From: Anaerolineaceae bacterium
GTDB taxonomy: Bacteria; Chloroflexota; Anaerolineae; Anaerolineales; Anaerolineaceae
Assembly: GCA_035315125.1 (NCBI GenBank)
Contig: DATFYI010000164.1
Location: forward strand, 444-64,443
Direction of reading: 5' to 3'
DNA: 64,000 nt
In this document: one piece after another, positions 6,701 through 40,870 of the stretch
Layout: each line of letters begins with the position of its first letter
How positions within the stretch are numbered: position 1 is the first letter of the stretch
Made by a program: the position numbers and the translations under genes
The notes under the pieces: generated by a model
Told to the model about the DNA's origin: nothing
What the model saw: only the letters and a program-made list of their open reading frames with translations
The model's database searches: none

Positions 6701-7685
6701 TCGTTTGATGTTCAATGATGTTGCTCGTTTCCGGCTCAAGTTCTGGCGCCGGTTGGGAAACCATGACTGCCAGGGCATGCCGGCGCACTTTGATCTGTAC
6801 CCGTCCTTCTCCTATGGGAGACCCATCCACCATGACCGGCATAACAGGGTGGGTATCAATCACCACTCTGCGTACATGGTAGTGTTCGATGCGTGGGTCT
6901 TCCGGCTTGCCTTCGCCCACCCCTTGGAGAACATAGCCCAACAAATCCATCTTGGACAGGTCTGCAAAGAACAGCACATCCAATAAACCGTCACTAAAGG
7001 AAGCATCAGAGCCAATCCGATAATGAAGGCCAATTACGGGCATGTTGGAAACCAGTACAATATGGCCAAAATTATGGATCTCTTGCTTATTCTCCAATAA
7101 AAGATGGATTTCGGCTGGTGGGGAATTGACCAGTGTTGCCAGGAAATCGCCGACCCGTGCCAGGTTGCCGTGCTGTACGTCATCAGCGGATGGAAAAAGC
7201 GATGAGACCAGACCGACCGAGCAAACTTCCAAGAAAGGAGTAGAAATGTTGCCGCAGGTGGCCATGCCAACGTCCACTTTGATTCGCCGGCCATTTCGCA
7301 GAATGGAAATGGCAGCCGGAATATTGTTGGCAGGGATGCCCAGGCTGAGGGCATTGTTATTCTGTGTGCCGGTAGGGATAATCCCCAGGGTGGCATGTGT
7401 ACCGGCCAGGCTCCTGGCCGAAGTAGAAATCGTGCCGTCGCCGCCGCATACCACAAACATGCGGATGCCCTGCGCCAGTGCCTCCTGGATCACCCCCGGC
7501 AGGTCACAGCCCGGTTCGATCAAAAAAGGTTCTGGAATGAGCTTCCAATCCTGCATCTCACTGATCACATCCATCAGCTGGATAGGCGACTCGCCCGTTG
7601 ATCCAGATCCGGGATTGAAAATCAGCTTGGCTCGTATGGGGCGTCTACTCTTAGCACTGGGCTCTACATTCAAATGATTGTCCAT
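6681..7685 (-). CDS. diacylglycerol kinase family lipid kinase (YegS/DagK-like)
   Basis: AKLIFNPGSG...VVCGGDGTIS...GIIPTGTQNN is the typical DAGK catalytic-domain signature. Confidence 0.85.
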   Translation of the reverse strand: MDNHLNVEPSAKSRRPIRAKLIFNPGSGSTGESPIQLMDVISEMQDWKLIPEPFLIEPGCDLPGVIQEALAQGIRMFVVCGGDGTISTSARSLAGTHATLGIIPTGTQNNNALSLGIPANNIPAAISILRNGRRIKVDVGMATCGNISTPFLEVCSVGLVSSLFPSADDVQHGNLARVGDFLATLVNSPPAEIHLLLENKQEIHNFGHIVLVSNMPVIGLHYRIGSDASFSDGLLDVLFFADLSKMDLLGYVLQGVGEGKPEDPRIEHYHVRRVVIDTHPVMPVMVDGSPIGEGRVQIKVRRHALAVMVSQPAPELEPETSNIIEHQTNDATLA

Positions 7686-32125: not shown

Positions 32126-33064
32126 CTAGAGACCAAACATTTTCGTATCGACCCACTCGCTCTTGAGCAGCGACCACCAATCTACGGCCAGCGAATGCAG
32201 CACGTAGTCATATGGCAGCCAGCCATAACCTGCGTCGCCCCAACCTGTGCCCCACGAATTGCGGATCAGCAGTGCGCCCACCGTCTCTTTTGCGCCCGGG
32301 CTGGTGTTCTTGATATGCATGGCGTCATCGAAACCGACCGCCACCACCGCGTGCCCGCCAGCGACTTGTTCACCGGGCATTGGATATGGAAACTTACCTG
32401 TTGAAGCAGCCTGGACGTAAGAGCTGTAGACAGTGAAACCAAACATGGAAGGCAAATAGGCTGTCAGAAACAGCTTGATCAGGCTCAACAGCGTTGCCGG
32501 CGAAACACCGGGAGGATCGAGGCGATAGTAGCGGATCGCCTGATAATTCTGTGCAAAAGCGTATTCGAACGCGTTCGGCTCTTGATCGAAGTCGGGTTGG
32601 ACGTCTGTGTACGGCCAGTATTTCTCAGGCGGCGTGCCGAACAGGGTTAACGCTCCCATTGTGGTGCGCAGATACGCCCCGGTATCCCCTGTCCAGCCCA
32701 GCAGGTCACGCGTCGTTTTGTAGAGGAACAGACGAGAAGCATCAATGTACGTGCCAAAAGAGCGGTTTTCGAAATATTCCACAATGCCAACACCGGCATT
32801 CGCAGTGCAAGAGCCGAGATTCATCTGGTCATCGATTGCCGAGCACCACGGGCGCAGATCCATCGTGGCCGCCAAAGCCGGTGCGGACGTTTTAAGAACG
32901 CCTACCTTGTTGAGATCTGCCTTCACTGACCGTTGCCCCATAACTTTAAGGTGGGGCGTCACCTCATCATGATTGACCGTGTAATCGCGGAAATCAGGGT
33001 TGTCATGCAGCCAACCCATCCTATAAGTGGAATTCGACATTACATTTGCTCCTTTCTGATACAA
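32126..33064 (-). CDS. papain-like C1 family cysteine peptidase
   Basis: Catalytic Cys context QMNLGSCTANAG, His GGHAVVAVGFDD, Asn/Trp NSWGTGWGDAGYGW. No obvious signal peptide. Confidence 0.88.
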   Translation of the reverse strand: MYQKGANVMSNSTYRMGWLHDNPDFRDYTVNHDEVTPHLKVMGQRSVKADLNKVGVLKTSAPALAATMDLRPWCSAIDDQMNLGSCTANAGVGIVEYFENRSFGTYIDASRLFLYKTTRDLLGWTGDTGAYLRTTMGALTLFGTPPEKYWPYTDVQPDFDQEPNAFEYAFAQNYQAIRYYRLDPPGVSPATLLSLIKLFLTAYLPSMFGFTVYSSYVQAASTGKFPYPMPGEQVAGGHAVVAVGFDDAMHIKNTSPGAKETVGALLIRNSWGTGWGDAGYGWLPYDYVLHSLAVDWWSLLKSEWVDTKMFGL

Positions 33065-33213
33065 TATTGATCCAATCGACTGGAGAGTTCTACGGCGAGC
33101 AACGCTTTCGCTCAGCCCGCCCTCTTCATCACGCTAGTGAAAAAACATCACCTCCTTTGACCTGGATTGACGCTCGTCCGCTGGCAGGGGATCTATTTTA
33201 CTGGCTTTACCCA

Positions 33214-33254
33214 GGAAATAAAAAAGGCAAATCCATCGAAATGTGGATTTGCCT
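33214..33254 (-). terminator. rho-independent terminator (minus strand)
   Basis: 11-bp stem AGGCAAATCCA/TGGATTTGCCT (33225-33254) followed on the minus strand by TTTTTTATTTCC. Confidence 0.6.
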
Positions 33255-33398
33255 CATTGTTTCCAGGTCAACGAGCCTACAGAACCCGGCGATGCCTAAA
33301 CCTGGTTAAATCCCGCTATTGTCTAGACATATCATAGCACGTAAGATTCTGAATTTCAATACAAACTCGCTACCGTTTGAACTCCCCTCTTTGCCCCT

Positions 33399-33428
33399 CC
33401 CCTAAAATCTGTTCCCCGGATTTTGGGG
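33399..33428. repeat. G/C-capped palindromic (REP-like) hairpin
   Basis: CCCCTAAAATC-N9-GATTTTGGGG. Same architecture as the hairpins at 37917-37945 and within 38015-38223. Confidence 0.5.
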
Positions 33429-33483
33429 TCGCGGAGCATGCCGTAGGCGGAGGCTGGGTGGGGGTGCATTTAGCCCTGTCGGA

Positions 33484-33585
33484 TTAGAGGTCGGCTCTGG
33501 CAAGTGCTCCGGCCACCCAGATCGCTGCGATCAGAACGGCCAACACCGCCAGCAGCATGTCAGGAATTCGTACAGCCCAAATCAT
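33484..33585 (-). CDS. possible 33-aa hydrophobic peptide
   Basis: ATG at 33585 with GAGGGG 9 nt upstream. Product MIWAVRIPDMLLAVLAVLIAAIWVAGALARADL. Below track cutoff and otherwise unsupported. Confidence 0.2.
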   Translation of the reverse strand: MIWAVRIPDMLLAVLAVLIAAIWVAGALARADL

Positions 33586-33791
33586 AGTCGTCTACCCCTC
33601 ACCGTAGGTGGTTGAGGGTTCATTGTAACATTCAATACCGGACTAGATGTTCGACCGCTATCCGCAAAATTAGTACTGGTTTTTTTAACGAAGTTCTAAA
33701 TGGATATGCCAGGATGAAAGTAGGTTTCGCATTCGCTCAATGTATTTTGCAAGCTTTCTACATTATTATTCTTATTAGCTATTTCTTGAAT

Positions 33792-36188
33792 TTAAGCCGG
33801 GTTATTTCTAATTTCCAGGTATGCATGAAAAGGAACATTAATTTTATAACGTTCAAATCCAGTTTCTTCAGTAACGCGTTTTGCAAGTTTCTGTATTACT
33901 TTTTTTCTGCTTTCATCATACACAAATTCAAAGCTATTTATATCCGTTTCCAATCCTAGAAACGTTGAATCAATTAATAAATCAATTATAGAATCCACAT
34001 TTGACTTAGGAATTTTGACCTTTTCTAATAATTCTTGGATCTCATTTCTTGAAATAATCTCTTTTCCACCGGCAAATTCATAAAGAAAATCTTCAATTCC
34101 ATCAAATTGTGTTTCGGTCTCAGCTAGTAAGGAACTAAAAGCCAATTCGGAGTAGCTATCTTCAGCTTGAAGAATATCTTTTTCTTCAATTTTTTTGTTT
34201 TTATGATTAACAGCATTATTCAATGCATTTTTACAAAGAAAAATTAAATCCCTTGGCCTAGGAATAATCCGACTAACCAGATATTCTTTAATTGGCAAAT
34301 TATTGATTTTTGAAACAAAATACTTTTCCCAAATATTGTCTATGTCAATCTCTGTAGATGAACTTAAGAATCGTTCTTCTATTATTCGTTGTAATAATTG
34401 ATGGTCATTCCAATCCATTCTAGTAAAATTTAATTTATCGCTTTCTCTTGCATTGGACTTAACATAAGAAAATATATCACTTCGCAAGAAAATTATTAAC
34501 GATAAATGAACCGGTGCAAATCTCATCTTTTGTTTATTAAATTCATCGGCAATAGTTTGCCCACAACTAAGTAATCCGAATAGAAAATCTGTTAAAAGTT
34601 TAATGTTTTCCCCCTTTTCCCATGCTTTATCTAGATTGTCTATTAATATTATTACTTTATTTTTAGTTTCTAAAATGTTGCCAAGGAGTTCTCGCAATTC
34701 GCCTAAAATCTTAATGTGGAGTATTTCACTCACCTTGGCACGCTGTTCTCTAATATTGAATTGCAAGTTTAATCCGCATAAATTATCAATAGCATATTCC
34801 ATTCGCCAGGTAAAATCTTGTTTTATAAATGGTTGATTATTTTCAATAAATGTTATTAAATTTTTCTCCTTTTCTGTGGAATCTATATATGAAGGCTTAT
34901 TATTAATATTGCTATAAACAAGATTCGCCAATTCAGTATATATAAGAAATTTCCATAAGCTTTCAATCAGATAACCGGGGTCTGCTTTCGTAATGTTCGA
35001 ACTTAATAGACGCAGTACACCCTCAAGTTCATAATCAATGGGCTTAATAATGCACACTAAATTTCGTTTATCTAATTCGAGTTGCTTAGCGATTTGGAAC
35101 AAATTCGCCGTTTTTCCGCTCCCCTTTCGACCAATATATATTAAGTATTTTTCTGCTTTTAGAGCTTGAAAATAAGAAGCAGTAGTGACAAAATAATCGC
35201 TTAATTGCTGTTCTTCATTCTCAGCCACATATTCACCGATATTAATTTTTTGCAAATCAGCCATCAATGCTAAATTTGTTTTTCTTTCTTGCCCTTCTTC
35301 ATCAATAGTAAAAAATTTATTTTTAACCCAAGGTAGCCAAGTTTCTAATTTAGCCTTTAATTCAGAAGCAGTTTCATGAATATAAAGGAGGTCTCGAAAA
35401 TCAATTGGCGAATTAAATGGTGAATGGGCTAACATTAGTAGCGGTTTACCAAGACCAAATGCTATTCCTGAAATGATGGAATATTTCGAATTTTGTATTA
35501 GTCCGATATTTTCTTCTCTGTCTTCACTTATAAAATGGGCTATTACTCCAAACGAAGAATAGACATTTTGAGCATACCAGATTAATGGTTGCCCAGATAT
35601 TTCTTTGTTGTCATCAACTACTAATCGTATTTTCGACTCTTTTAAACTTCGATTAAGCTCAATGCTAGCATCAGTATTTACTTCGCTTTTTAAGTAAAAC
35701 AAGAATGGCTTTCTATCCTGATATTGAGATTCAAGGTTTTCGAAAATCCTTTTATAAATGGTTGACTCTAAATCTAGATAAGGTTGTTCTATAAAGAAAT
35801 TTCTTGTAAGATCTACGGAGTTTTGATATGCCGAGTATGCAATAGTTGATAATAACCCCAATTTTTTATAATTCTTTACAGATTCATCTAAAGATGTGTC
35901 CAGCGTTATCCAAATTCTTTTATTTCTTGAAATCGCATATCCAAGTTCAAATAAAACGTTCCTATTTAAAATTGTTAAATCACAGATGAAAATATCACAA
36001 TCATCTATTGATTTACATATTTCAGAAATGATTTCCTTCCCAGTGTTATTTAATGTTTTCCACCCAACCATATTGACATAATCACTTGCACAGCCATTTA
36101 CATTGGATATAAACAATTCAATGGATTCTCCCCTATCAAGAGGCTTCTCGGGATATGCAACAAAACATTTTGCACTTGTCATTTCCAT
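33792..36188 (-). CDS. tandem TIR-like (Cap12/Pycsar-effector-type) domains fused to a P-loop NTPase and a helical C-terminal region (798 aa); candidate defence protein
   Basis: Domain 1 has CFVAYPEKP...DIFICDLTILNRNVLFELGYAISRNKRIWI. Domain 2 has FLFYLKSE...AHFISEDREEN...SIISGIAFGLGKPLLML. Walker A is YIGRKGSGKTANL and Walker B is KVIILIDNLDKAWE, followed by an arginine-containing IIPRPRDLIFL segment. Codon usage is very AT-rich. Confidence 0.7.
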   Translation of the reverse strand: MEMTSAKCFVAYPEKPLDRGESIELFISNVNGCASDYVNMVGWKTLNNTGKEIISEICKSIDDCDIFICDLTILNRNVLFELGYAISRNKRIWITLDTSLDESVKNYKKLGLLSTIAYSAYQNSVDLTRNFFIEQPYLDLESTIYKRIFENLESQYQDRKPFLFYLKSEVNTDASIELNRSLKESKIRLVVDDNKEISGQPLIWYAQNVYSSFGVIAHFISEDREENIGLIQNSKYSIISGIAFGLGKPLLMLAHSPFNSPIDFRDLLYIHETASELKAKLETWLPWVKNKFFTIDEEGQERKTNLALMADLQKINIGEYVAENEEQQLSDYFVTTASYFQALKAEKYLIYIGRKGSGKTANLFQIAKQLELDKRNLVCIIKPIDYELEGVLRLLSSNITKADPGYLIESLWKFLIYTELANLVYSNINNKPSYIDSTEKEKNLITFIENNQPFIKQDFTWRMEYAIDNLCGLNLQFNIREQRAKVSEILHIKILGELRELLGNILETKNKVIILIDNLDKAWEKGENIKLLTDFLFGLLSCGQTIADEFNKQKMRFAPVHLSLIIFLRSDIFSYVKSNARESDKLNFTRMDWNDHQLLQRIIEERFLSSSTEIDIDNIWEKYFVSKINNLPIKEYLVSRIIPRPRDLIFLCKNALNNAVNHKNKKIEEKDILQAEDSYSELAFSSLLAETETQFDGIEDFLYEFAGGKEIISRNEIQELLEKVKIPKSNVDSIIDLLIDSTFLGLETDINSFEFVYDESRKKVIQKLAKRVTEETGFERYKINVPFHAYLEIRNNPA

Positions 36189-36241
36189 CCTCCGACAATC
36201 CAGTATGTGGGGGGCGTTGGCAATACGCCATCCCTCTTGCC

Positions 36242-36418
36242 TTACTTTTCGTAAGCTATTGGGTTATCTTTCTTGTTTTCACCATTCCATCCCGCACATA
36301 ATATCCCCTCAGGCACAATGAAAATTATTTGAGGCTCTGCTGTTACAAGAATTGGCAAACGGCGGTAAATAAAAGAATATATCCCACCTGGAATAAACGA
36401 ATGCCGATAATTAGGCAT
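36242..36418 (-). pseudogene. decayed Y1 (IS200/RAYT-type, COG1943-like) transposase fragment
   Basis: MPNYRHSFIPGGIYSFIYRRLPIL resembles the conserved N-terminus MPNYRR..vPGGtYFFTv..rR.piL of REP-associated tyrosine transposases. The HUH region is missing and the fragment is about 58 aa. Confidence 0.4.
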
Positions 36419-36470
36419 AAAAATATTATAGCAGTTTTGCGATTTTTGTCGCGTTGTCAACACATCCTAC

Positions 36471-37376
36471 TTAACTAATGGAGATGGATCGCCAGAAACG
36501 CATTTCAGTTTTGTAATGTAATTGCATATAAATTTGATCCAGGAAATGTTCAATCTCTTTCGTGTCCCATCCATAAAGTCGCCATAAACACCATAGTACT
36601 TTTGCGAATGACGTTACAGATATATTGCAAAGATACATGGCACTTTCGGGATGAAGGTGCTTTTCAATGGCATTTGTATCCTGTCCTTCTGGGTTTTCTA
36701 CATCGTTGATACGAAACGCAATCTTCCATAGGGCCCAATGATGACCATGAGCAATTGCTGATAAGAGCCGATAATCTGCTTCTCGATCTAAAGTTGTTCC
36801 AATCAAATCTATAATGCTTGGCATACGTAAGGCAATGCCATTAATATTTCCATTCTTATTCAATAGTCGAGGATAGCCAAGTGAGACGGCGTCTTGTTCT
36901 ACCTTTATTATTCTCTGTTGCGCCATATCTATTTCCGTTTGCATTTTCTTTAAATCTAAAAACTTGATTTGTTCAATAAACCCTTCATAACGAAAAGCAA
37001 AACACCTTCCTACTCGAGTCTTTGCATCAATCGTAGGATCAAGAAACCAAACGGCGATAGCACATGACTCTAATAAACCACGCACACATGTCCAGGGTGC
37101 AATGGTCTTGGCTGGTTCAGTCATAGAATCAGCAAAAGCCATGAAATGATCAGCCGCTGATTCCATTGATAATATTCCCCTATAATGCACATCCTTAATA
37201 AGTACTTGATTTGAGAAACTATTCCGTTCTTGAACTGCAAGAGATCCGGATGCAGGTTCATTATTGTATTTGTTATAAATCTGTGCTGACCCATCAATTA
37301 AATTATGTACAGTAGAAAGCATATTTAGCACGTCTTCATATGTAAATTTTGAAATTGTGTTCCTAATCTCAGACAT
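36471..37376 (-). CDS. orphan all-alpha-looking protein (301 aa), partner of the TIR-like NTPase gene
   Basis: AT-rich ORF on the same strand and in the same island. No motif recognised; it contains AIAHGHHWALWK. Confidence 0.55.
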   Translation of the reverse strand: MSEIRNTISKFTYEDVLNMLSTVHNLIDGSAQIYNKYNNEPASGSLAVQERNSFSNQVLIKDVHYRGILSMESAADHFMAFADSMTEPAKTIAPWTCVRGLLESCAIAVWFLDPTIDAKTRVGRCFAFRYEGFIEQIKFLDLKKMQTEIDMAQQRIIKVEQDAVSLGYPRLLNKNGNINGIALRMPSIIDLIGTTLDREADYRLLSAIAHGHHWALWKIAFRINDVENPEGQDTNAIEKHLHPESAMYLCNISVTSFAKVLWCLWRLYGWDTKEIEHFLDQIYMQLHYKTEMRFWRSISIS

Positions 37377-37555
37377 ATAAAATTCCCTTCTTGTTTCTTA
37401 ATGCATTGCCCCTTGACCTTGATCCATTTGATGGACACCGAATTGAGGTCGATCCTAATAATTGGTCCCGAATTCAGCTCGGGATAAACACCTCGAGCCG
37501 AATGCAACTTGACGGTATTGTAAAACCCTTACAAAAATCGGATCTGCCCTTATTT

Positions 37556-37903
37556 TCACAGCGCTTCCAAAATAGCCTGCGCCACGCCATCTAAATTCTT
37601 CAAAACCTCGTCGTTCCAGAAACGCAATACCCGGTAGCCCTTGGATTTAAGGAAAGCGGTACGCTCAAGGTCATATTCTTGCTGGTCAAGATGCTGGCCT
37701 CCGTCCAGCTCGATCACCAATTTCTGGCGCGGGGCGCAAAAATCAACGATGTAAGGGCCGATGGCGTGTTGGCGGCGGAAGTGGATGTCCTCTAATTGGT
37801 GCGAACGCAGCGCTCGCCATAGTCTGGCTTCGGCCTCGGTCTGGTTGTGGCGCAGTTGGCGGGAATTCGAGAAGGTTTGCGGGCTGGTGCGACGGTGGGT
37901 CAT
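37556..37903 (-). CDS. DUF559 (Vsr-like) endonuclease domain protein
   Basis: RQLRHNQTEAEARLWRALR...FRRQHAIGPYIVDFCAPRQKLVIELDGGQH...DLERTAFLKSKGYRVLRFWNDEV. Start at the ATG at 37903; the track TTG start lies inside a palindromic repeat. Confidence 0.85.
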   Translation of the reverse strand: MTHRRTSPQTFSNSRQLRHNQTEAEARLWRALRSHQLEDIHFRRQHAIGPYIVDFCAPRQKLVIELDGGQHLDQQEYDLERTAFLKSKGYRVLRFWNDEVLKNLDGVAQAILEAL

Positions 37904-37916
37904 ACCCCCTCCAGCT

Positions 37917-37945
37917 CCCCCAATTTTAAAAACCAAAATTGGGGG
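37917..37945. repeat. G/C-capped palindromic (REP-like) hairpin
   Basis: CCCCCAATTTT-N7-AAAATTGGGGG, a perfect 11-bp inverted repeat. Confidence 0.55.
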
Positions 37946-38014
37946 AGAGAAAAACAGAGCATTTCAGGCAAAATTGGGTACGGAGAGCATCTTATTATAA
38001 GATTTACAGCTTGT

Positions 38015-38223
38015 CCCCTCCGCTAAAATCCGGTTTTTGGATTTGTCAAAGCTGGGCCTGTAAAAATCGGGGCAATTGTGGTCGTGGATATATGGTTTTA
38101 CCCCCCCGCTGAAATCCGGTTTTTGGATTTGGCAAAGGTGGGTCTTTAAAAAACCAGGTTAATGATGGTCGTGGATATATGGTCTTACTCCTCCCCCAAA
38201 ATCATGTTTTTTGATTTTGGGGG
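38015..38223. repeat. tandem ~86-bp repeat (2 full copies + partial), each containing a palindromic hairpin
   Basis: Copy 1 is 38015-38096 and copy 2 is 38101-38183; they share CCCC(T/C)CCGCT(A/G)AAATCCGGTTTTTGGATTTG...GGTCGTGGATATATGGT. A third palindrome CCCCAAAATCATGTTTTTTGATTTTGGGG lies at 38194-38222. Confidence 0.7.
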
Positions 38224-40394
38224 AGGCGGGAGGGGGTGATCCGCTCCGGCGTGAAGGGAATCTGTCTCAACCGCAGCCCGCTGGCATCGAAGATGGCGTT
38301 GGCCACTGCTGCCGCCGTGGTGACGGTGGTAGGCTCGCCGGCGCCCAGGGCCGGTTGCTCGGGCCGGTTGATCAGCACGATCTCGATCTCGGGCACTTCG
38401 GAGAACTTCAGAATGGGGTAGCTCTCCCAATCCACGCTGGTCTGGCGGATCTGGTCAAATTTGATCTCTTCTTTGAGCGCCCGGCTGAGGGATTGGATAA
38501 CGTTGCCTTCGATCTGGTTTTTCAGCCCATCCGGGTTGATGATCAGCCCGCAGTCGTGCGCCACCACGATGCGCGGCACACGTATCGTTCCATTGTTGAG
38601 ATCGACCTGCACGAAGGCGATGCAGGCCACGATGGCCTGGTCGTTTTCGTAGCGGGCGAAGGCCAAACCCCTTCCCTCGACCAAGCCCTCTTTTGGAGCG
38701 TTGTGAGCGGGCGAGGAATGCGCCTGCCAGCCGGCCTGATCGGCTGCGGCCTGCAGCACTTCTCGCAGGCGCGCCTCGTGCAGATAGCGCAGCCGGAATT
38801 CCAGCGCATCGGCACCGGCCGCCGCAGCCAGCTCGTCCATAAAGGATTCGTTGGCGAAGGTGTTTTCAGCCCCACCCAGGCTGCGGAAAGCCGAGGCACG
38901 CAGCGGGCTGTCCGAGAGCGAATGTACCGTCACGCGCTGCACTGGGAAGGCGTAGTTGGTGGGTGCGTTGCGCTCGGCCCCAAAGGAGAACGGCAGCGGC
39001 GGGGCGCTTTCGCCCGAGATCAGTTGGGTCGCCACGAATTGGTTACCAAAGCGCGGCCGGGCCACGTGCGAGGGCGACCAGACCTGGTAGTCCCAGGCGG
39101 TCACCGCACCCTGTACATCCAGGCCGGCGCTCACTTCCATCACCATGGCCGGCCCTTTTGGCTCCCACACGAACTCGTCTTCGCGACTCCACTGTACCCT
39201 TACCGGCCGGCCAACCGCCTGCGATAGCAACACCGCATCGGCGGCCACGTCATCCGAGCCGTTCTGGCCGTAGCCCCCGGCGCCTTCCATGTAGATGGTA
39301 TGGACTTTTTCCTTGGGCATTTCCAGCATCTCGGCCAGCGTGTCACGCAGCGGGTGCGGGCCCGAGCTGCTGGTCCAGACCGTCACCTGCTCGGCGCTGA
39401 CATCCGCCACGGCGCAGGCCGGCCCGATCGAGGCGTGGGCGTGATAGGGTTGGTAATAGGTGGCATGCACCTGGCGGGCGGAGCGCTGCAAGGCGGCGGC
39501 GACATCCCCGTTTTCGACCAGCACATTGTCCTGGGTTGGCTGGGAGCGCAGGCTGGTGAACAGATCCGCCATGGCCGGGAAGGCGGGCGTCTCCTGCCAG
39601 ACCACCTTCAGCTTTTTGGCAGCCAGCACGGCCTGCTCTTCGCGCTCGCATACCACTCCGATAAAGTTGCCGCGTTGCACCACTTTGACCAGCCCGGGCA
39701 GGTCGGCCAGCGAGCTCTCGTCCAGCGAGATCAGGTGGGATTTCAAATTCGGCGGGTGCACCATGCGGGCGTGCAACATGCCGGGCACTTCTAGATCCTG
39801 GATAAAGCTGCGCTGCCCGGTAAATTTGCCTGGCAAATCCACGCGTGGCACCGATCTACCCACGATAGTGTAGTCCTGCGGGTTCTTCAACGGGGCTTTG
39901 CCGGTCACCGTACGGTTGAACTTCTTACCGCCCATCAGCTCGGCATAGCTGGTGCTGCGCTCCGGGCGTTTGGTAACAAAGATGATGCCATCTTTTACAG
40001 ATAATTCGTCCGGGCTGGCGTCCAGTTTTTCCGAGGCCAACTCCAGCAAAGCGCGGCGCGCTTCAGCGGACGCTTTGCGCAGCGCTCCGCCGCTGGTCAG
40101 GATGGTCATGCTGCCGGCGGTATAGCCTTCGTTGGGGGTGCGGTCGCTGTCGCCCATCAGCATGTGGACGCGCTCGAAGGGCAGATCCAGCTCTTCGGCC
40201 ACAATTTGAGCCAGGGCGGTGCGTGTGCCGGTGCCCAGTTCCACTTTGCCGCTGAAGGCGGTCACGGAGCCATCCGGCTCGATGGCCAGCCAGTCATCCA
40301 GTTGGTCGGATAAGCGTCCCCAGAAGGCTTCAGCCCGTCCCGAGCCGGGACGTTGGCCCTGGCCGCGCGGCGGCCAGTTCGGGTTATTGCTCAT
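38202..40394 (-). CDS. molybdopterin-binding subunit of a xanthine dehydrogenase-family hydroxylase (IorB/aldehyde oxidase-like)
   Basis: 730-aa ORF with a typical family layout (GTGTRTALAQIVAEEL..., ...GAGEPTTVTTAAAVANAI). Overlaps the 2Fe-2S subunit gene by 4 nt. Confidence 0.8.
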   Translation of the reverse strand: MSNNPNWPPRGQGQRPGSGRAEAFWGRLSDQLDDWLAIEPDGSVTAFSGKVELGTGTRTALAQIVAEELDLPFERVHMLMGDSDRTPNEGYTAGSMTILTSGGALRKASAEARRALLELASEKLDASPDELSVKDGIIFVTKRPERSTSYAELMGGKKFNRTVTGKAPLKNPQDYTIVGRSVPRVDLPGKFTGQRSFIQDLEVPGMLHARMVHPPNLKSHLISLDESSLADLPGLVKVVQRGNFIGVVCEREEQAVLAAKKLKVVWQETPAFPAMADLFTSLRSQPTQDNVLVENGDVAAALQRSARQVHATYYQPYHAHASIGPACAVADVSAEQVTVWTSSSGPHPLRDTLAEMLEMPKEKVHTIYMEGAGGYGQNGSDDVAADAVLLSQAVGRPVRVQWSREDEFVWEPKGPAMVMEVSAGLDVQGAVTAWDYQVWSPSHVARPRFGNQFVATQLISGESAPPLPFSFGAERNAPTNYAFPVQRVTVHSLSDSPLRASAFRSLGGAENTFANESFMDELAAAAGADALEFRLRYLHEARLREVLQAAADQAGWQAHSSPAHNAPKEGLVEGRGLAFARYENDQAIVACIAFVQVDLNNGTIRVPRIVVAHDCGLIINPDGLKNQIEGNVIQSLSRALKEEIKFDQIRQTSVDWESYPILKFSEVPEIEIVLINRPEQPALGAGEPTTVTTAAAVANAIFDASGLRLRQIPFTPERITPSRLPQNQKT

Positions 40395-40870
40395 TGCTCA
40401 CCTCCCCACATCAGCTCGGCGGCCCGTTTGACAGCCCGCAGGATGCGCAGGTGGGAGCCGCAGCGGCACAAATTGCCGTCCAATGCGGCCCGGATTTTTT
40501 TGTCGCTCGGCTCCGGGTTCGTCAGCAGCAGGGCGGTGGCGCTGATGATCATACCGTTGGTACAGTAACCGCATTGCGCGGCCTCTTCTTCAATGAAGGC
40601 GCGCACCACCGGGTGCAGTTGTCCGTCTTCGTTGAGCCCTTCAAGGGTGGTGATGGGCGTTTGCCCCACCTCGGCCACCGTCAGCTTGCAGGACTGTTTC
40701 GCTTCGGCGCCGATCAGCACCATGCAGGCGCCGCACTGCTCCAGACCGCAGCCAAACTGCGGGGCGTGCAGCCCCAGTTCGTTGCGCAGCACATACAGCA
40801 GGGGTGTATCCGCCGCGGCCTGGACGGTATGGGATTTTCCATTGACTTGAATAACAAGATCGGATGCCAT
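40391..40870 (-). CDS. (2Fe-2S)-binding small subunit of molybdenum hydroxylase
   Basis: Cys clusters GCGLEQCGACMV and QCGYCTNGMI...CRCGSHLRI. Confidence 0.88.
   Translation of the reverse strand: MASDLVIQVNGKSHTVQAAADTPLLYVLRNELGLHAPQFGCGLEQCGACMVLIGAEAKQSCKLTVAEVGQTPITTLEGLNEDGQLHPVVRAFIEEEAAQCGYCTNGMIISATALLLTNPEPSDKKIRAALDGNLCRCGSHLRILRAVKRAAELMWGGEQ

Follow-up and report, generated by a model that had tools for sequence, protein, structure and literature searches.

The 64,000-nucleotide stretch of DNA analysed here (the window: positions 444 to 64,443 of contig DATFYI010000164.1, designated C164, in an assembly of an Anaerolineaceae bacterium) contains, between about 33.6 and 37.55 kb, a strongly AT-rich region that holds the genes for a 798-residue TIR-like ATPase and for a 301-residue protein (orf301). 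This region is probably a small composite islet of horizontally acquired, defence-type single-gene cargo, situated at a hypervariable spot downstream of an operon for the iron–sulphur (Fe-S) and molybdenum (Mo) subunits of a hydroxylase. Its horizontal origin is well supported, owing to its extreme composition, its patchiness among relatives and the occurrence of its gene families in unrelated neighbourhoods of many phyla. The original prediction, which described a horizontally acquired cassette bracketed by palindromes, thus stands with regard to horizontal acquisition. The notion of a single cassette does not, since the islet appears composite when set against the same locus in a related organism, the hairpins lie away from the composition breaks and include a copy of a dispersed repeat, and no integrase is present.

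The composition of the region was assessed against the whole genome, a fragmented metagenome-assembled genome (MAG) of 3.70 Mb in 345 contigs with a mean GC of 0.4865. The background comprised 6194 2-kb windows for GC (sd 0.042) and 2013 long open reading frames (ORFs) for the percentiles of GC at third codon positions (GC3). GC is 0.343 over 33600-37550 (0.318 for 33600-36200 and 0.392 for 36200-37550), and the lowest 2-kb window of the genome (0.3105, about -4.2 sd, first of 6194) falls inside the islet. Along the sliding profile, GC falls from 0.52-0.58 to 0.29-0.33 (about 33.6-36.2 kb), rises to about 0.38-0.40 as far as 37.5 kb and then returns to 0.5-0.67. Maximum-likelihood change points were located at 33666 on the left (GC 0.52 to 0.30, likelihood ratio (LR) 105), at 37575 on the right (0.39 to 0.54, LR 48) and at 36123 within the islet (0.32 to 0.40, LR 19.5). 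The same discontinuity is reflected in codon usage, with a GC3 of 0.243 for the TIR-ATPase (0.15th percentile) and 0.306 for orf301 (0.6th percentile), compared with 0.678 for the adjoining DUF559 gene (96th percentile), 0.632 for the left flanking peptidase gene and 0.786 for the Mo-hydroxylase gene (99.7th percentile). Deviant base and codon composition, one of the signs by which genomic islands are recognized, is therefore present, and the abrupt AT-rich switch, initially judged by eye, is borne out by calculation. The return to native composition at the DUF559 gene (GC 0.56) was also described correctly. The contrast at the right border is exaggerated, because the Mo-hydroxylase and Fe-S subunit genes (38202-40870) are themselves high-end outliers, with GC3 values of 0.79 and 0.75, above the 99th percentile.

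The more AT-rich of the two genes (33792-36188, minus strand, GC 0.31) codes for a protein that passes the NCBIfam model NF047389, a P-loop ATPase of the Sll1717 family, with 277.9 bits against a cut-off of 75 (E 1.8e-82, residues 317-771). A literature search on “Sll1717” found no paper. In the protein, two TIR/nucleoside deoxyribosyltransferase (NDT)-like domains are followed by an AAA+ P-loop ATPase of the ORC/Cdc6-like type and then by a winged helix. The AlphaFold model (predicted local distance difference test (pLDDT) score of 87) likewise exhibits two Rossmann-like TIR/NDT domains, an AAA+ module and a winged helix, and its top structural matches in Foldseek are Cdc6/Orc1, RuvB, TnsC and the plant TIR-NLR RPP1. 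The N-terminus gives weak matches to nucleoside 2-deoxyribosyltransferase (PF05014), PF10137, DNPH1 and CAP12/Pycsar-TIR, centred around Glu81. This residue and the Walker A residues G353, G356, G358 and K359 do not vary among 40 homologues. The Glu is missing from the second TIR-like domain, which may bind a ligand.

The distribution of the ATPase family is sporadic within the class and broad beyond it. Two of 401 sampled genomes of the class contain it, the present genome being one of them, yet a survey of 185,579 species genomes, with one genome per species across the prokaryotes, yielded 247 loci with full-length relatives in about 20 phyla, including the Chloroflexota, Acidobacteriota, Bacillota, Bacteroidota, Planctomycetota and Actinomycetota. 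The window protein belongs to a Chloroflexota clade with 99% support, and its closest relative shares 51% identity. Phylum labels cluster on the tree (23 changes versus 40 when shuffled), and transfer has therefore occurred mostly within phyla. In all 77 other loci with enough flanking sequence, the GC of the gene is below that of its flanks, by 0.09 on average and by more than 0.10 in 27 of them. Clustering of the flanking ORFs at 83 loci revealed no conserved neighbour, the largest neighbour family occurring in 4 of the 83, and no homologue of orf301, of DUF559 or of a 73-residue ORF found between the two AT-rich genes lies near any of them; judged by these neighbourhoods, the ATPase is a stand-alone module. 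Among the genes found near its homologues are defence genes: BREX PglZ/SNF2, a Ymh protein, restriction-modification (R-M) and DISARM methylases, and PADLOC candidate (PDC) systems. One homologue (on contig L018) is preceded by a 68-residue ORF (2393-2599) which represents the N-terminal stump of a DNA methyltransferase (IDLIYLEPPFNS), typical debris of a defence island. An identical TIR-ATPase protein was also observed on two contigs (L032 and L033), one from a MAG labelled Methanofastidiosum, an archaeon, and the other from an Anaerolineaceae MAG, for which a binning error is more likely than a recent cross-domain transfer.

The second AT-rich gene, orf301 (36471-37376, minus strand, GC 0.38), had been regarded as an orphan, a description refuted by its 165 homologues, the closest of which is 78% identical; 34 positions of the family are invariant. 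The structural model is all-helical (pLDDT 91). No match was obtained with Foldseek against PDB and the viral models of BFVD (best TM score 0.26), and a profile search against PDB sequences returned nothing. With regard to Pfam PF18928 (DUF5677), 4 of 42 family members show weak similarity (best E 0.0017), and the window protein, which shows none, does not reach the gathering threshold. When DUF5677 was included once in a test of candidate defence genes located near serine recombinases, it did not come out positive (PMC12632615). The conserved residues of the family (D76-H77, R99, E103, R121/124/129 and H210/H212/H213) are suggestive of either enzymatic activity or a metal site. A HEPN domain was considered on account of the R203-x6-H210 spacing, and nothing was found in its favour. 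Within the 401 sampled genomes of the class, orf301 occurs in this genome only. Elsewhere its homologues lie next to a Schlafen/AlbA gene and a DAC-fusion protein, a large serine recombinase with MauJ and VRR-NUC, or CHAT/DUF4238 genes, in a prophage- or plasmid-like stretch and, in one case, amid housekeeping genes; none was found in IMG/VR. These contexts would be consistent with a conserved helical protein carried along in mobile and defence surroundings.

A partnership between orf301 and the TIR-ATPase was ruled out, as none of the 83 ATPase loci contains orf301 and no orf301 locus contains the ATPase. Since each family travels alone through unrelated neighbourhoods, the two AT-rich genes are independent modules rather than partners. 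Of note is another association, in which a nuclease of the PD-(D/E)xK type adjoins a gene of the orf301 family in 4 of about 9 contexts: g587 (L014:4154-5917), a 516-residue gene product (L017:4332-5882), VRR-NUC (L021:7322-7879) and DUF559 in the window (37556-37903). The g587 protein and the 516-residue protein share a common E...D...E-K core (BLASTP E 0.011). The combination of orf301 with a nuclease may be a two-gene module or a coincidence.

The history of the locus can be followed in related contigs from other metagenomes (L014, and also L015 and L016). On L014, the Mo-hydroxylase exhibits 84% amino acid and 83.6% nucleotide identity to the window gene and is followed, in order, by a similarly built hairpin element, 72 nt left over from the 3' end of DUF559, g93, AHSA1, g42, a block of low GC that contains g196, g587 and the orf301 orthologue orf307, a second DUF559 3' remnant, and DNA of native GC. 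The orthologue is 78% identical to orf301 in amino acids and 81.6% in nucleotides, with a GC of about 0.39. Since the divergence of orf301 is similar to that of the Mo-hydroxylase and the gene is AT-rich in both lineages, orf301, the hairpin and DUF559 were probably all in place here before the two lineages split, in the ancestor shared with the L014 organism. The TIR-ATPase segment, with its own lower GC, is lineage-specific, and L014 contains different cargo there. As orf301 is the older gene, common to both, and the ATPase is lineage-specific, the islet is composite, its assembly having taken at least two steps. The variable block of L014 (g93 to orf307) lies between direct copies of the DUF559 3' end (2150-2240 and 7190-7290), which are about 90% identical over 72-100 nt, the second with an in-frame TGA. 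These copies could be either a recombination scar or a site resembling an attachment (att) site.

In 80 more distant metagenome loci encoding a Mo-hydroxylase (47-78% identity), the Fe-S/Mo-hydroxylase pair is kept and nothing downstream of it is; the hairpin and an adjoining DUF559 gene are missing from all of them. In one of these loci (L135:11597-14933), a low-GC (0.32-0.44) type IIG R-M methylase of the Eco57I/TaqI type and a 377-residue gene product are encoded directly downstream of the Mo-hydroxylase, which supports the idea of a hotspot. Sporadic distribution together with variable content at the same locus, the second sign of a genomic island, is thus evident both in the rarity of the two families within the class and in the differing cargo of L014 and L135. 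The likely sequence of events would begin with the hairpin element, DUF559 and AT-rich orf301 at this spot before the split from the L014 lineage. After the split, the present lineage would have gained the more AT-rich TIR-ATPase gene on the far side of orf301, and the L014 lineage would have lost most of DUF559 and gained g93, AHSA1, g196 and g587. Insertion by illegitimate or repeat-assisted recombination at a hotspot is favoured over a dedicated mobile element.

The palindromes reported on both sides of the islet do exist, although they do not sit at its composition breaks. The left one (33399-33428) is part of a hairpin element (33390-33470, minus strand) and lies about 200 bp outside the left composition break, past GC-rich DNA in which a hydrophobic ORF of 34 codons is found. 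Those on the right are separated from the AT-rich DNA by the DUF559 gene, which has native composition. They comprise a perfect 13-bp hairpin (37915-37947, folding z -3.5) 12 nt 5' of the DUF559 start codon, two 86-bp tandem units (38001-38152, 82% identity), each with a weaker AAATCC...GGATTT hairpin (folding z 0.05 and -1.6), and a perfect 15-bp hairpin (CCTCCCCCAAAATCA/TGATTTTGGGGGAGG) over the Mo-hydroxylase stop codon (38190-38226, -27 kcal/mol, folding z -7.6). The left element belongs to a family of dispersed repeats, each about 50-80 nt long, of which a profile search found 15 copies in the genome, with the consensus CCCTCACCCTGCCCTCGCCTTCGGCATGCTGCGCGATCCCGGAGGGAGAGG and C-rich and G-rich ends that can pair. 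The copies are located on contigs C331, C178, C111, C49, C269, C42, C31, C231 (three copies), C338, C59, C61 and C316, and in the window at 33402-33470. The hairpin with an A/T core is a variant of local occurrence, found five times here and once on C231. The family lies no nearer to low-GC DNA than random positions do (P 0.56), and the left hairpin was accordingly ruled out as an att site specific to the islet. The hairpins are not accepted as the ends of a mobile cassette, and they may nevertheless have been substrates for recombination. One of them has also altered its neighbour: the final 11 codons of the Mo-hydroxylase (ITPSRLPQNQKT; 38202-38237) are encoded by the hairpin element, and alignments to 80 orthologues stop at residue 719 of 730, so that the repeat replaced or extended the C-terminus.

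Diverged direct copies of the hairpin element do, however, flank a larger block that includes DUF559, and the whole 4.8 kb from the Mo-hydroxylase stop to the left repeat, with DUF559, orf301, the 73-residue ORF, the ATPase gene and the 34-codon ORF, might be viewed as one element inserted at the 3' end of the Mo-hydroxylase, with the hairpin copies of about 75 nt as att-like sites. Over 33390-33466, the left element shares 82% identity with the DNA immediately after the Mo-hydroxylase gene on L014, and it has the same orientation as the hairpin at the stop codon in the window; the hairpin together with DUF559 is confined to the window and L014/L015 among 82 Mo-hydroxylase loci; and the L014 island is flanked by a direct repeat, about 72-100 nt long, of the DUF559 3' end. 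This explanation is nonetheless unlikely. The block codes for no integrase or recombinase, the repeat belongs to the 15-copy family unrelated to low-GC DNA, and the two copies are strongly diverged, the right one lacking about 20 nt. In addition, L014 contains just part of the block together with other cargo, which argues against acquisition in one piece. No direct repeats or att-like sites were found at the composition breaks themselves, the repeats of about 75 nt being outside them, and searches of the region for tRNA genes and Rfam families were empty. The third sign of a genomic island, a mobility gene with att sites, direct repeats or a tRNA target, is therefore lacking here.

A related and similarly doubtful proposal assigns the central role to DUF559 (37556-37903, minus strand), which would have seeded a site of cargo exchange as a homing-type selfish unit with an upstream hairpin, its 3' end serving as the recombination site for single-gene defence cargo. 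The gene codes for 115 residues from its ATG with a Vsr/restriction-endonuclease fold (PF04480, E 4e-43, 146 bits versus a gathering threshold of 20.6) and is the sole copy in the genome; in PADLOC it shows weak similarity to HEase/DpdF only. The proposal fits the repeated DUF559 3' end on L014, the position of orf301 right after DUF559, and the adjacency of orf301 and nucleases. If it were true, orf301 and the nuclease could constitute an undescribed two-gene module.

Movement of the islet by a Y1 transposase of the IS200/IS605 or RAYT type acting through the hairpins, with the 73-residue ORF (36242-36463, minus strand; 58 residues from its ATG) as the decayed remnant, is very unlikely. The presence of hairpins on either side speaks for it, and the first 20 or so residues from the ATG (MPNYRHSFIPGGIYSFIYRR) resemble the N-termini of COG1943 transposases, a resemblance that no search confirmed. 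The ORF has no match in Pfam, NCBIfam or PHROG, including PF01797 even at E 10. Among 1.8 billion representatives, phmmer recovered the ORF and, apart from it, just three repetitive proteins and no transposase; tblastn against plasmids gave nothing under E 0.1; and there is no similarity to the sole ORF of the genome with a Y1_Tnp domain. The HUH and catalytic Tyr motifs by which IS200/IS605 and RAYT proteins are known are missing, and the hairpins do not touch the AT-rich DNA. The truncated Y1 transposase of the original prediction is thus without statistical support, and its list of islet genes holds in content only, as neither this identity nor the orphan status of the 301-residue ORF could be maintained. 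Within the 73-residue ORF, a promoter scan indicated a promoter-like site with an extended -10 (36452-36425, minus strand) which could drive the TIR-ATPase gene.

An artefact of assembly or binning, in which foreign AT-rich DNA was fused to a Chloroflexi contig, might be suspected from the fragmentation of the MAG and from the Logan contigs of the same run (SRR5271157), which break on both sides of the block, at about 33170-33244 (the terminator hairpin) and about 38101 (the 86-bp repeat). These breaks could reflect the repeats or strain-level presence and absence of the block. An independent Logan contig of this run covers 33244-38101 and thereby crosses both composition breaks, containing the GC-rich DUF559 gene and repeat together with the AT-rich genes. 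On contigs of other samples (L014 and L015), moreover, the Mo-hydroxylase, the hairpin, the DUF559 remnant and the AT-rich orf301 orthologue are joined, which leaves an artefact highly improbable.

The low GC of the two families is a lasting property rather than merely a sign of recent arrival, since orf301 has remained at about 38-40% GC beside an operon of 64% GC while diverging by about 17% in nucleotides, and the ATPase gene shows a shift towards AT in 77 of 77 loci. Although these same observations would suit native, vertically inherited genes that selection keeps AT-rich with no transfer at all, that is the least probable of the explanations considered, given the presence of the families in 1-2 of 401 genomes of the class, neighbourhoods that are different in every genome and the hypervariability of the locus among relatives.

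Several points weigh against a composite, horizontally acquired islet of defence-type genes. An exact empty site was found neither among the 80 Mo-hydroxylase loci nor in the nearest genomes compared, which come from different genera within this family and do not preserve gene order on the side of the peptidase. As neither the peptidase neighbourhood nor the region downstream of the Mo-hydroxylase is conserved, the comparison of synteny ended without a reconstructed empty site. For the junction with the peptidase gene on the left, the MAG contig is the only support. PADLOC returned zero matches for both the 798- and the 301-residue protein. Defence genes were observed near homologues of the two families, and many of the neighbours have no defence match. 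The putative defence role of the islet genes thus draws on architecture and neighbourhoods.

The surroundings of the islet consist of native genes and small elements. The Mo-hydroxylase large subunit gene (MoCoBD; 38202-40394, minus strand) is the right-hand anchor, and a papain-family C1 peptidase gene (32126-33040, minus strand) flanks the islet on the left. The strong minus-strand terminator that had been predicted ahead of the latter is indeed present at 33224-33255 (12-bp stem, T-tail, folding z -4.6), and its position suggests that it would end minus-strand transcription of the islet before the peptidase(-chagasin) operon. Between the ATPase stop codon and the left repeat, the GC-rich 34-codon ORF (33486-33590, minus strand), read from the sequence, codes for the hydrophobic peptide MIWAVRIPDMLLAVLAVLIAAIWVAGALARADL and is preceded by GAGGGG; a search for homologues was empty, and nothing points to a real gene.

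As a composite of mobile, single-gene cargo, the islet is nothing unusual in itself, being one of the small AT-rich islets without an integrase that occur at variable spots of chromosomes. The analysis flags, however, two conserved and widely transferred families without a described function as candidates for antiphage defence or conflict, namely the tandem-TIR/NDT protein with an ORC/Cdc6-like ATPase and the 301-residue helical family. The former may represent a stand-alone, compact NLR-like sensor and effector against phages. According to its architecture, the part made up of the ORC/Cdc6-like ATPase and the winged helix would detect a signal of infection and oligomerize in an ATP-dependent manner. 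Oligomerization would then activate the N-terminal TIR/NDT-like glycosidase (Glu81), which would deplete NAD+ or the nucleotide pool and thereby lead to abortive infection. The locus also provides an example of low GC as a lasting trait of mobile defence-type genes, which is not a clock of recent arrival, and it corrects three annotation claims, those of an “orphan”, a “Y1 stump” and “bracketing palindromes”.

With regard to known systems, the short hairpin repeats dispersed in the genome, and a short ORF alleged to be a Y1 stump, recall the repetitive extragenic palindromic (REP)/RAYT and IS200/IS605 elements. The locus differs from them in the lack of a verifiable Y1 domain, and the repeats here are not tied to the islet or to low-GC DNA. 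The 798-residue protein resembles DNPH1/Rcl, the NDTs and the TIR domains of CAP12/Pycsar in a weak N-terminal alignment around the catalytic Glu, all below the family cut-offs. The DUF4062 “Swarozyc” proteins, which are TIR-like NADases (bioRxiv 10.64898/2026.05.01.722283), share with it an N-terminal domain of the TIR/NDT superfamily, a patchy distribution and proximity to defence genes, yet it has no DUF4062 match.

An architectural parallel exists with the TIR-STAND/NLR proteins (Avs/AVAST, bNACHT, Rst_TIR-NLR and the plant TNL RPP1). Here too, an N-terminal TIR-superfamily domain with the catalytic Glu is combined with a Walker A P-loop ATPase and a winged helix, the gene occurs by itself and has been transferred widely, and the structural matches include Cdc6/Orc1 as well as RPP1. 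The 798-residue protein differs in its ATPase, an ORC/Cdc6-like AAA+ module that belongs to the Sll1717 family (NF047389) and not to NACHT or NB-ARC, the matches to NACHT and nSTAND models being far under the cut-offs. It has tandem TIR/NDT-like domains, a length of only 798 residues and no C-terminal sensor of TPR, LRR or WD40 repeats, the model ending in the winged helix.

Finally, the locus may be compared with integrase-less defence islands and hotspots. The cargo here matches no described defence family in PADLOC, and the spot is known from no more than three lineages of uncultured Chloroflexi, all of them metagenomic, with no empty site recovered. It nevertheless shares with such islands the deviation in composition and the sporadic distribution. 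Some homologues of the islet genes adjoin BREX, R-M, DISARM, Schlafen and CHAT genes, and the same position is occupied by the TIR-ATPase in the window, by g196 and g587 on L014 and by a type IIG R-M methylase on L135.

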